DNA from: a virus
Taxonomy: Duplodnaviria > Caudoviricetes
DNA: 36,528 nt
Direction: 5' to 3' (one strand)
Virus record (IMG/VR): IMGVR_UViG_3300010398_000020
Location: 1-36,528 of that record
Positions 1,086 through 35,398 of the stretch are shown piece after piece (position 1 is the stretch's first letter; every line of letters starts with the position of its first letter). The position numbers and the translations under genes were made by a program. The notes beneath the pieces were generated by a model. It was not told the DNA's origin and did no database searches. It worked only from the letters and a program-made list of their open reading frames with translations.

Positions 1086-1312
1086 CAGCGTTGGGAGTGC
1101 GGCGGCTCTGGTTGCGCCTAGGGTGGAGCCGGCTACAAGCGTCGGCCTACCTTGGGCTCAACGAAAAAACTATTCGCCGCTGGAACAAGGACGGCGCGCC
1201 ACCTCATGCGTCGCGCGTGTTGACGTTGCTCGCCGCCGGCAAAATCAGCAAAGAAAGCGCCGCCGTGCTCTTGTCGAGCGATTACGAGCGGCGCCTTCCT
1301 GCGGCGAGTTAA
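1082..1312 (+). CDS. Small HTH DNA-binding protein (XRE/Cro-like)
   Basis: LGWSRLQASAYLGLNEKTIRRW fits an HTH pattern. Confidence 0.7.
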   Translation: MTALGVRRLWLRLGWSRLQASAYLGLNEKTIRRWNKDGAPPHASRVLTLLAAGKISKESAAVLLSSDYERRLPAAS

Positions 1313-1941
1313 GCGAAGCCGGCAACGCGGCGGCGCGTGCGGAACGCAAACGCGAGCCCGACGAAGCCGAGTATCATCATCGCCCATGTGGACGGTTCCG
1401 GCACCGCGCCGGCGGCAACGTCAACACGATAGTGCTCGAAATCGGTAATACTGCCCCCGGTATCGAGTAGCACGTACTGATTGATCGTCTCGCCGTTGAT
1501 GGCCGCCAACGTAAACCCGGACTGTGCGTTCGGGTCGATTGCACCGAGGTTGAACGTGAACAACATAGTGCCGCCGCCTTGTTCGTTGGCAGTCACAAAC
1601 GCGGTTACGTTGCCGGTGCCCTTTAGGGAGAAAACGTCAGTGGTAGTTGCCAACACACTAGTGTTGGTCGCATCAAAGACTTGCACTTGCAAGTCAGAGG
1701 TGTTGGCAATCTTAATGTCGTTGCCATTCGCCGCGCCCACAAACAGCGGGTTTCCAGATAGGTCGGTGAAATCAACGGTGCCTTGGTTTTGACCGTTGAA
1801 ACTCCCAAGAATGAGGCCGCCCGTCTGACTGTCAAACACCACGTTGTCACCCGTGCCACTCAGTTTATCGAGTAGAGTGACGTCAGCCATCGCAGCAACA
1901 GGCGTCATTGCCAGTGCCGACGCAAGCAATAGTCGCTTCAT
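1309..1941 (-). CDS. PEP-CTERM (PEPxxWA-CTERM) sorting-domain surface protein
   Basis: Signal peptide MKRLLLASALAMTPVAAMA|D. C-terminal VPEPSTWAMMILGFVGLAFAF followed by basic RTRRR. GGAGG RBS. Confidence 0.93.
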   Translation of the reverse strand: MKRLLLASALAMTPVAAMADVTLLDKLSGTGDNVVFDSQTGGLILGSFNGQNQGTVDFTDLSGNPLFVGAANGNDIKIANTSDLQVQVFDATNTSVLATTTDVFSLKGTGNVTAFVTANEQGGGTMLFTFNLGAIDPNAQSGFTLAAINGETINQYVLLDTGGSITDFEHYRVDVAAGAVPEPSTWAMMILGFVGLAFAFRTRRRVAGFA

Positions 1942-2964: not shown

Positions 2965-3867
2965 ATGCCCGATCCGCAAAATCGAACCGTTAGCGCGACC
3001 GAAAGCCCCGCGCTATTCAACGCGAGCCCGTATCTGACGCGGTGGATGCTTTGGCGCAAATACGCGCGCGGCGACAAGATCGAGCCGGCCGAAACCGAGC
3101 GCATGTTTTGGGGAAAGGAATTGCAGCCGCTTCTAACAAAGCGCGCCGCTCACGATTTGAAACTTGAGGTGCACGATAACGTCCACGATCATTACATGCG
3201 CCATTCAACGCTGTTGATGGGGTGCACGCGCGATGCGTTGATTTACGATCCTAACCGCGGGTGGGGTTCGTTGGAGTGCAAATGCGTATTCGATTACGGG
3301 GTGTGGTTTCGAGAATGGCAAAGCGGGCAAGTTGTGCCGCGTCATTATGAAATCCAACTCCAACACCAAATGATCTGCGGCGACGGCGAGCAACCCCATG
3401 CGTGGGGTGTGATTGCCGCGTGGGTGTGCGGTGAAATGCACTATTTCGAGCGCGCGCCGATCGAGCAATTTCATGGTGAGCTATTGACAGCGATCGGGCA
3501 ATTTTGGGCAAGCTTGAGCGGCCCGGAGCCGGAACCATTCGGCGAAGCGGTGGAATACCCGTTGCTGCGCGAGCTATTCGATCCGCCACCGGGCGCCGTC
3601 AAAGAGGACCCGCAAAACTACAAACTCGCGGAAATTGCGCGGCTCTACAAGGACTTTCGCGCCAACTATCGCTTCTATGAAAAGGGCGCAGTAGCGGCGC
3701 GGCTTGAGTTGTTGAAAGCGATCGGCCACGACCATGAAGCGCTGCACCTCGCCGGCGACATTTGGGTGCGCGTGACCAAGACGAAGAACAACAATTTGAT
3801 GGTTAAGGTGGAAATCCCCGATGTTCTACCGGACGAAATCATTGATGCTTCGGAGGGTATCAGCTAG
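2965..3867 (+). CDS. YqaJ-like viral recombinase exonuclease (lambda exo family)
   Basis: SATE..A...SPY, WG..L, CTRD, LECK and Y.IQLQHQM motifs. Upstream of RecT. Confidence 0.88.
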   Translation: MPDPQNRTVSATESPALFNASPYLTRWMLWRKYARGDKIEPAETERMFWGKELQPLLTKRAAHDLKLEVHDNVHDHYMRHSTLLMGCTRDALIYDPNRGWGSLECKCVFDYGVWFREWQSGQVVPRHYEIQLQHQMICGDGEQPHAWGVIAAWVCGEMHYFERAPIEQFHGELLTAIGQFWASLSGPEPEPFGEAVEYPLLRELFDPPPGAVKEDPQNYKLAEIARLYKDFRANYRFYEKGAVAARLELLKAIGHDHEALHLAGDIWVRVTKTKNNNLMVKVEIPDVLPDEIIDASEGIS

Positions 3868-4534: not shown

Positions 4535-5607
4535 ACGAATTAGCCGTCATCCAAAAACAATTCGAGCCGCTATTACCGCGGCTTGAGGCGGCGCTAGGTC
4601 CGGCGACGCAACACCTCCCGTTGCCGCGACTGATGCAAACGATTTGGGTGTCGATCGAGCAAAACCCGAAACTATTGGACGCCAACCGGCAAAGCTTGTT
4701 CAACGCTGCGCTCACGTTCGCATTCCTCGGGTTGGAGGTGGATGGTGCGACCGGGCAAGGGTATTTGATCCCTTTCAAAAACCGCGTGCAGCCCGTTATC
4801 GGTTACAAGGGCTACAACACGCTAGGCGCCCGTAGCGGCTTGACCATCAACGGCGACGTGATCCGCGAGGGTGACCGTTTTGAATTTGCCCTCGGGTCCA
4901 ATCCTTTCTGCACGCACGTCCCCAAGCTTGGGGAGCCCGGTCGCAAAGTAATAGGCGCGTGGGCAACCGCGAGTTCCAACACCCGGCCGCCGATTATCGC
5001 GGTGATGGGGATAGACGAACTCTTAGAGGTTAAACGGCGCGCGCCCAACGGCAATCAACCGCCGTGGTCCGATCCCGCCGTCGGCTTCCCGGCCATGTGC
5101 CAAAAGACCGTTAAGCGCCGGCTCGCGCGCGGGATGCCGCTCAACGTCTTTCAATACGCGGCGCGCCTTGAAGAACAATTTGACGAACAAGGCGTCGGCG
5201 GCTGGATTGACCCGTCGCGCGGCGTCGTCGCCGAGCGCGAGGAAACGCCGCCGCCTACGTCAACCATGCTGACGCAAGAGCCGGAACCGCAGCCGGCAGA
5301 AGAAACGGCGCCGGATAATGTTTCACGTGAAACAAATGGCGCCGCCCAAACCGAGCAAGCCTTTAGGGAGCCCGCCGGTGCGCCGGCGCCGCTCGCCGGT
5401 GATGTGTCAGGCAACCTCGGACGATTTCGCATTGCCTGTTCGTCTGCCTGCGAGGAAGGCACCGCCAAACTGCAATCGGTGTGGAAAACCATTCCGTTTG
5501 AGTACCGCGCGAGCCTGCAAGCCACCTACGACAAGCAATGGTGGACGCGCGCGTTGCTCGCCGATCGGCGCGCCAGCGAGCGCGAGGAAAAGGACACGCT
5601 GATATGA
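4531..5607 (+). CDS. recT: RecT-family single-strand annealing protein
   Basis: Start MNELAVIQ at 4531 (GAGG RBS). GLE...GQGYLIPF, IGYKG, V.EGD.F and W....AMCQKTV.RRL motifs. Pro/Glu linker and C-terminal helical domain. Confidence 0.92.
   Translation: MNELAVIQKQFEPLLPRLEAALGPATQHLPLPRLMQTIWVSIEQNPKLLDANRQSLFNAALTFAFLGLEVDGATGQGYLIPFKNRVQPVIGYKGYNTLGARSGLTINGDVIREGDRFEFALGSNPFCTHVPKLGEPGRKVIGAWATASSNTRPPIIAVMGIDELLEVKRRAPNGNQPPWSDPAVGFPAMCQKTVKRRLARGMPLNVFQYAARLEEQFDEQGVGGWIDPSRGVVAEREETPPPTSTMLTQEPEPQPAEETAPDNVSRETNGAAQTEQAFREPAGAPAPLAGDVSGNLGRFRIACSSACEEGTAKLQSVWKTIPFEYRASLQATYDKQWWTRALLADRRASEREEKDTLI
5319..5334. promoter_or_regulatory. parS: parS centromere-like site (ParB binding consensus)
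   Basis: Exact 16-bp palindrome TGTTTCACGTGAAACA, read as NVSRET in the RecT linker. Confidence 0.9.
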
Positions 5608-34749: not shown

Positions 34750-34995
34750 TCAGTCTCCCATGCTCGCATGTAGGCCCGCGACTATAGCGTGTTGCAAGCC
34801 TAATAACACCTCCTGCGCCGTTAAAAGAACAGCCGCCTTCTCCGGCTCGCCGGCGTCTTGCGCCTGCCGTATCGCCAGCGCCCGTTGGTCAATGTTGTTC
34901 TGCAACATCGTCGAGAACGCCAGCCAATTCATTTCCGGGTTTAGCGGCGGCGCGCGTCCCGCCCTAGTCAACGGTAGCTCGCCCGATAGTTTCAT
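34750..34995 (-). CDS. Hypothetical helical protein
   Basis: ATG 34995 overlaps the upstream stop (ATGA). Confidence 0.65.
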   Translation of the reverse strand: MKLSGELPLTRAGRAPPLNPEMNWLAFSTMLQNNIDQRALAIRQAQDAGEPEKAAVLLTAQEVLLGLQHAIVAGLHASMGD

Positions 34996-35234
34996 GCTGT
35001 TAATGCCTTGATTGCCCACATGACGCTTTCCTCTAACGCCGTCGTCGCCAGCGCCCGATAGCGCTGATCTTTCGACGCTTGCATATACAATTCCTCTAGT
35101 TCCTCGGCGCGCGTCTTAATCAAATCATGCAACGCCATTTCCTCGGTTGTCAGCTTGCGATAGCGCGGCCGAAACCGCGACACCTCAATATCGCCTTCCT
35201 GCCGCTTGTCCGGCTCGCCTTGAAACTGGCTCAT
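34992..35234 (-). CDS. Acb2/Tad1-family nucleotide-signal sponge-like protein (80 aa)
   Basis: Start MSQFQG at 35234. YRKLTTEE...IK..AEEL...RYRALATTALEESVMWAIKAL resembles Acb2 (YRxLSxEE) and Tad1 (LAxTxLEExxMW) motifs. Confidence 0.72.
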   Translation of the reverse strand: MSQFQGEPDKRQEGDIEVSRFRPRYRKLTTEEMALHDLIKTRAEELEELYMQASKDQRYRALATTALEESVMWAIKALTA

Positions 35235-35398
35235 TCTTGCTCCCGATCTAGCCGGCGAACGTCGCGGCCACGTTGAAACGCGCCGTCCAGCACCCACAGC
35301 ACTACCAGCACCGCGCCTAACACCCACAACAACAAGACCAGCACAATTACTGACACTCTTTGTCCTGCAACGTGAGCAACGCTTGTTGCCTCACTCAT
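35231..35398 (-). CDS. Small single-TM membrane protein
   Basis: Start MSEATS at 35398. Hydrophobic VSVIVLVLLLWVLGAVLVVLWVL. Confidence 0.65.
   Translation of the reverse strand: MSEATSVAHVAGQRVSVIVLVLLLWVLGAVLVVLWVLDGAFQRGRDVRRLDREQE

Follow-up and report, generated by a model that had tools for sequence, protein, structure and literature searches.

A consensus parS site in the linker of a phage recT gene

The window (the whole stretch of phage DNA analysed here, 36,528 nt, a record that is ~91% complete, with ~9% of the genome missing) codes for a terminase, a portal, a capsid protein, RecE and RecT, RusA and an amidase. Its RecT was assigned to the RecT family on the basis of a PF03837 match above the cut-off and of a RecE/YqaJ partner encoded nearby (Table 1). 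Within the coding sequence of recT lies TGTTTCACGTGAAACA, a 16-bp palindrome that fits the chromosomal-type pattern TGTTNCACGTGAAACA and is identical to the consensus parS as used in PMC7383237; the same 16-mer is given for Hyphomonas neptunium in Table 1 of PMC7022226. It is the sole match to this 16-mer in the 36.5-kb window, even with three mismatches allowed, and uniform base frequencies would yield 36,528 x 4^-16, or ~9e-6, occurrences. Both the exact palindrome and its chance expectation, put at about 1e-5, had been correctly recognised in the initial annotation. Contigs from other soil runs span the site and, among the differences listed, none falls within it, so that an assembly artefact is unlikely.

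Table 1. Positions of the features discussed in the text (coordinates of the window).
Feature	Position	Strand	Basis
RecE/YqaJ-like exonuclease, RecT partner	2965..3867	+	phrog_434; PF09588
recT, ssDNA annealing protein, 358 aa	4531..5607	+	PF03837, E 3e-24 (residues 33-215); phrog_148, E 1e-38
RecT core-helix position homologous to the L305 parS; reads LLEVKR, no parS in the window	5020..5037	+	alignment; AlphaFold2 helix, residues 161-170, pLDDT 94; column counts
Lineage-specific in-frame Pro/Glu linker extension holding parS	5290..5358	+	protein and DNA alignments; edges approximate
parS, predicted host ParB loading site	5319..5334	.	exact TGTTTCACGTGAAACA; identical in L302-L304
PEPxxWA-CTERM protein, host clue	1309..1941	-	NF035944 above cut-off; nearest Atlas clusters mostly Pseudomonadota

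As first noted from the sequence, the six codons of the site read NVSRET (RecT residues 263-268) within a Pro/Glu linker of RecT. An AlphaFold2 model built from a 98-sequence alignment renders residues 249-291 as coil (mean pLDDT 47 at residues 261-270), flanked by the RecT core and, towards the C-terminus, by a confidently modelled helical domain, and the linker carrying parS is predicted to be disordered. In the six closest RecT clusters (57-72% identity) the linker is 11-19 residues shorter, and the site falls in the extra part; aligned as DNA, the linker of the window is 48 nt longer than that of the relative L305 described below. The predicted coil, the low pLDDT and the lack of a counterpart of the extension in sister RecTs all support the earlier suggestion that parS is overprinted on a tolerant stretch of protein; writing such a site costs least in a disordered linker. 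The extension itself may stem either from host DNA that was captured or from duplication and mutation in place.

The 16-mer is unchanged in all three close relatives (recT identity 93-99%), in which adjoining bases are altered. Given the peptide NVSRET, the phage's own codon usage would produce these six codons with a probability of 1.1e-4. The initial annotation had proposed conservation at synonymous sites as a check, and this gave a divided answer: the 16-mer is intact in the three relatives, but 46 of 192 fourfold sites vary among them and the six invariant positions reach P = 0.23 only, the relatives being too similar to one another. As a conserved feature of recT, parS was ruled out, VSRET being present in just one of the 120 RecT homologs listed (of 566 found), namely the window's own cluster. 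The earlier tie between parS and recT therefore does not hold, in that relatives place the site elsewhere or are without it.

A second perfect site in the recT gene of a relative

The recT gene of the relative L305 (68% protein identity) also contains a perfect 16-mer, which lies at L305:956-971, ~300 nt further upstream in the gene and in a different reading frame; L305 has no parS in its linker. At this second site the peptide reads LFHVKQ in place of the LLEVKR of the window, and the position falls in a confidently modelled helix (Table 1). LFHVKQ is found in all six members of the L305 protein cluster, and both of its distinctive residues are rare at these columns, with F in 1/120 and H in 2/120 homologs against a consensus of L/M-A. 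On the simplest reading, the RecT of the L305 lineage would have taken on rare residues to create a DNA site, and the sites in the recT genes of the window and of L305 are likely to represent parallel, independent gains. Two likely independent gains of parS inside one gene are the distinctive evidence presented here.

A sister RecT cluster (P0004, P0123-P0126) reads LLHVKQ at residues ~164-169, one residue off LFHVKQ, and possibly represents an intermediate or a decayed parS. A degenerate scan of viral contigs for DNA of the LLHVKQ lineage gave 0 matches.

Distribution of the site across related phages

We then searched the whole records of related phages for the 14-mer core of the site, allowing at most one mismatch and using the reversed motif as a control. 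The core was detected in 18 of 122 related records (50 + 50 + 22, some of which may be near-duplicates), as compared with 0 of 122 for the reversed control. The positive records comprised 12/50 of the longer records among 89 loci, 3/50 of the RecT-linked records and short fragments, and 3/22 of the terminase-linked records, and all but one of the 18 (17/18) carry exactly one site. In line with these counts, the parS motif ranked first among 420 palindromes of the same composition in 20 whole genomes, where it was present in 6 genomes against a control mean of 0.064 and a maximum of 2. The best match to the full 16-mer over 18 genomes had 0-2 mismatches in seven (the window included) and 3-5 in 11; furthermore, two of the 16 positions are changed in four of the six site-bearing relatives among them, and a CCC half-site variant occurs in 5/18 positive records. 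Among the near-complete relatives that share the capsid or the terminase, the site is present in 5/21 and absent from 16/21, so that this phage family can dispense with parS.

The settings of the sites vary, and include positions beside replication-like genes, before gcrA, at a methylase start, in the portal region and in recT. Comparison of the flanks of 17 sites revealed four similar pairs only, leaving at least 13 unrelated contexts. When the presence of the site was mapped on a 22-tip tree, at least seven changes were needed and the clustering was no greater than in shuffles; this tree came from a quick search and includes five records because they bear the site, so that it portrays scatter and not frequency. 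Since the site is usually single and lies in at least 13 unrelated contexts, selection acts on the genome rather than on recT. The codon choice (P = 1e-4), the occurrence of the same DNA in two reading frames and the 18/122 against 0/122 records indicate selection on DNA and not on peptide. Judged from these sequence comparisons, parS is an optional element that has been gained and lost repeatedly and whose DNA is under selection at the genome level.

The same settings bear on whether ParB, together with SMC, might be loaded to act locally, in concatemer organisation or resolution, in shielding of the DNA or in damping nearby early genes. The non-structural arm contains most of the sites, several of them immediately ahead of genes or beside replication-like ones, and ParB is reported to recruit SMC in several species (PMC7022226). 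Such a role is nevertheless unlikely, as the positions are unrelated to one another, two of them are mid-gene in recT, which speaks against operator function, and spreading from one site extends over ~2 kb only in Caulobacter (PMC5815017).

Among the variants, one (L233:1490-1516; G012:34957-34982) overlaps an additional inverted half-site to form a 20-bp palindrome, and another, in L235:979-1516 (G036), lies ~10 nt upstream of a phage gcrA.

Across IMG/VR, the exact 16-mer is present in ~5,700 stretches, as estimated from 2 of 64 parts, whereas a full scan for the reversed 16-mer gave 2; the records that bear the 16-mer include many fragments and, perhaps, some host DNA. ParB_N was found in 2/49 of those tested, a sample drawn from 139 loci. 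The parS-bearing records of IMG/VR also include small (13-18 kb), near-complete ones (L033, L041, L048, L051, L070 and similar records) that are reminiscent of phi29, three of them with inverted terminal repeats.

These figures leave a neutral origin highly improbable, whether as a chance match or as a remnant of host DNA that RecET picked up and that has still to disappear. Such an origin would suit a site that sits in a linker extension peculiar to one lineage, in a gene for recombination, and the close relatives are too alike to prove synonymous constraint. However, the L305 site arose in register through substitutions in a conserved helix, and neither 18/122 records against 0/122 controls nor ~5,700 IMG/VR stretches, where the reversed 16-mer has 2, would be expected of neutral sequence.

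Partition, integration and lysogeny genes

Profile searches of the window for ParA (PF13614), ParB (PF02195, PF08535), tyrosine integrase (PF00589) and serine recombinase (PF00239) identified none of these, as the initial annotation had already reported for parA, parB and integrase. That annotation had also pointed to the rest of the genome as a place to look for parAB; in the near-identical contig L449, which extends ~1.6 kb beyond the right end, inspection by eye revealed a small HTH-like ORF and nothing parAB-like. In addition, ParB_N was found in 0/22 virus records and AAA_31 in 1/22 (G018, which is without parS). In this relative, the ParA-like AAA_31 gene (G018:C1:33198-35400) adjoins an IS-like ORF, and ParB was not found.

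The palindrome might also be recognised by something else than chromosomal ParB: a factor coded by the phage or a helper element, for instance, or a host regulator. With ~9% of the genome missing and many small ORFs without a family, there is some room for such a factor, and the CCC half-site variant (5/18) resembles half of the Noc site (PMC7383237). Yet not one base departs from the parS consensus, ParB_N is absent from all 22 records searched, and a phage-coded factor would need no exact host sequence at unrelated places in many lineages, which together make this reading very unlikely.

With regard to lysogeny, the S24 repressor profile (PF00717), which represents the cI-type cleavable class only, was found in 0/17 genomes, the window included. 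Tyrosine recombinases were detected in 4/21 near-complete structural relatives, in one case below the cut-off, and small resolvases in 4/17 genomes. None of the 84 capsid- or terminase-linked records (0/84) falls in the provirus class, and the capsid patterns were matched by 3 MAG contigs in 185,579 species genomes versus 107 viral stretches. Judging by gene content and these counts, integration seems to be the exception in this family, some members being temperate. There was no visible link between the site and an integrase (1 weak match among 5 relatives with the site; 3/16 without it) or GcrA (3/5 with the site; 8/11 without it), and none was seen with a resolvase. A replication initiator was not identified in the window. 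At 2730-2965 of the window, the recE/recT arm and a short leftward ORF that looks Cro-like by eye diverge from one another, and no cI-like gene was seen there.

The initial annotation had raised the possibility that the phage segregates as a plasmid-like prophage. This is not well supported, given the 0/17 result for the S24 repressor and the report that one strong parS on a low-copy plasmid cuts the viability of Caulobacter 100-1000-fold (PMC5815017), a cost that argues against a stable plasmid prophage in a Caulobacter-like host.

Probable hosts

The hosts are likely to be Alphaproteobacteria, as had been assumed at the outset. This assignment is favoured by GcrA genes in the family and by the PEPxxWA-CTERM protein of the window, while the window itself is without a GcrA match and one relative lies in an Acidobacteriaceae MAG. 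GcrA was detected in 18/50 records and in 13/23 near-complete ones, by a profile that, among 14 control genomes, was positive in Caulobacter and Sulfolobus only. The PEPxxWA-CTERM surface-sorting protein is phage-borne, with a 59% homolog in the relative G041.

The MAG contigs that were matched belong to Acidobacteriaceae, Gallionellaceae and Methylomirabilota. Since the Acidobacteriaceae contig (G051:C2, 42.6 kb, carrying the 14-mer) resembles a whole phage, we gave its bin label little weight. The 14-mer is present in 111/121 sampled genomes from the phylum of G052, a Gallionellaceae genome. A tblastn search against cultured phages and plasmids returned distant matches only, and the RecT profile gave two distant matches only over 151 genomes.

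In 12 of 14 host clusters, picked from the list of 14-mer-bearing genomes of the G052 phylum, a host copy of parS reads VSRET inside rsmG, and GcrA was found in 5/5 tested genomes with parS overprinted on rsmG. The parS sites of Caulobacter are likewise reported to lie within genes (PMC5815017). Overprinting of coding DNA is how these hosts write their own parS, and is ordinary for this element.

The window is devoid of several short motifs. GANTC, the CcrM site, occurs 0 times in it versus ~90 expected from a Markov model and 133 by base composition; the sister genome G005 has 2 versus 67 expected, and most other relatives have 42-156. This absence suggests that the hosts of this clade have a defence that targets the CcrM site, or else that CcrM/GcrA is being avoided in them. 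GAATTC, CCCGGG, AACGTT, GTCGAC and CCATGG are also absent from the window. At 34992-35327 (minus strand), a match to the Acb2/Tad1 hairpin domain (PF24729) passes the Pfam cut-off with E 7e-12, the protein being likely to serve as a signal-sponge anti-defence protein. Full CtrA boxes were found in 2/18 genomes and not in the window; a dif-like pattern and a repABC-type parS pattern were found in 1/18 and 0/28, respectively.

A proposed role for the site

Taken on its sequence, the 16-mer is very probably a loading site for host ParB. The sequences show an exact, lone site that close relatives have retained and that recurs at unrelated places in about one quarter of the near-complete relatives. 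In a second step, host ParB-CTP would in all likelihood bind parS and spread from it, ParB not having been found in the phages; in Caulobacter, ParB is reported to bind a single site with low-nM affinity, to spread over ~2 kb, and to connect to ParA, MipZ and the PopZ pole anchor (PMC5815017). In a third step, about half as probable as the second, the ParB-coated phage DNA would engage ParA and the MipZ/PopZ pole anchor, with the outcome that a few-copy genome stays in, or reaches, a viable daughter cell. The gene around a DNA site does not matter to ParB loading, so that any position in the genome would serve. The phage lineage is likely to have gained parS anew inside recT.

We tentatively favour a reading in which the ParB-loaded, non-integrated, few-copy genome hitch-hikes as the cell divides, while the phage is in a carrier state or delays lysis. 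Two points speak for it: nearly all positive records have one site only, and phi29 reportedly relies on host Spo0J to segregate. This would be a non-sporulating analogue of phi29 spore entrapment. By analogy with Caulobacter, however, the loss of viability caused by a plasmid-borne parS would fit harm to the host better than quiet co-inheritance. A more far-reaching version is possible but doubtful: alphaproteobacterial phages would repeatedly evolve a host centromere de novo, plugging into the essential ParABS-MipZ-PopZ cell-cycle machinery, such that the non-integrated genome is carried to a chosen pole or daughter (for example the dispersing swarmer) during deferred lysis.

The family looks largely non-integrating, and the strong restriction-site avoidance in the window may point to a mainly lytic history. 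Both would suit a phage that uses parS as a decoy, its replicating copies drawing ParB, ParA and MipZ off the chromosome and blocking segregation and division, to leave an undivided cell and a larger burst. The initial annotation had named titration of ParB as an option, and it draws support from the 100-1000-fold fall in Caulobacter viability with a single strong plasmid-borne parS and the perturbation of MipZ foci by ectopic chromosomal parS, both reported in PMC5815017, as well as from the essentiality of ParB in Caulobacter and Hyphomonas (PMC7022226). We nonetheless regard such sabotage, the chief rival of hitch-hiking, as somewhat unlikely: arrays of sites would serve it better, yet 17/18 positive records are single-site, and a lytic cycle may be too brief for a block in division to count. 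Hitch-hiking and the decoy may also be phases of one infection.

Should the more far-reaching version, with repeated de novo evolution of the host centromere, be true, phages now called lytic would possess a mode of inheritance that is free of partition genes, and the amino-acid changes in a conserved protein helix would be the price paid for the site. The ~5,700 parS-bearing IMG/VR stretches suggest that such inheritance may be common. The presence of parS is suggested as a marker of lifestyle that classifiers based on integrase and parAB overlook. The linker parS can be removed by synonymous recoding with the protein untouched, and the two recT sites thus provide a clean test.

Comparison with known systems

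Phages and plasmid prophages of the P1 and N15 type have their own ParA and ParB and their own centromere sequence. The phage studied here resembles them in having a centromere on the phage genome, but differs in that ParA and ParB of its own were not found, as a plasmid prophage with its own ParABS would require. Phages that code for their own ParB are dealt with in PMC10286716. With the chromosomal ParABS systems of Caulobacter and Hyphomonas (PMC5815017, PMC7022226) the window phage shares the 16-mer and its overprinting in coding DNA; unlike chromosomal-type sites, which cluster near oriC and parAB, its parS is a lone site, outside any origin cluster and with no adjoining parA or parB.

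A further parallel is CtrA-site lytic deferment, in which phages of Alphaproteobacteria independently gain sites for a host cell-cycle protein. This deferment uses promoter-linked CtrA boxes, whereas the window is without a full TTAA-N7-TTAA box, and the text of PMC9437464, which describes it, leaves open how the waiting phage genome survives. A borrowed parS would explain in concrete terms how a phage genome that is not integrated might survive the waiting phase, or stall host division. A search of the openly accessible literature listed no paper that describes host-type parS in phages of Alphaproteobacteria or its de novo overprinting in phage genes.

The primary paper on the parS sites of phi29 and Nf is reportedly that of Meijer et al. 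2005. These Bacillus phages carry host-type parS that is read by host Spo0J/ParB (PMC2731898; cited again in PMC9437464). Like them, the window phage, as far as its ~91% complete record extends, appears to borrow a host chromosomal parS, in keeping with ParB_N in 0/22 records. An effect of the host's partition protein on the phage genome is reported for phi29 (PMC2731898), whereas here it is predicted from sequence. Moreover, phi29 is described as having five sites together with Spo0A boxes, spore entrapment and a Firmicute host (PMC2731898); the window phage, in contrast, has one optional site, repeatedly gained and twice so in recT, and hosts that are inferred to be alphaproteobacterial, which makes a scheme of spore entrapment in a sporulating host unlikely. 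Borrowing of host ParB has already been reported for phi29, where it is tied to sporulation, and the new aspect is likely to be its repeated gain in likely non-sporulating hosts, which would imply a more general benefit.
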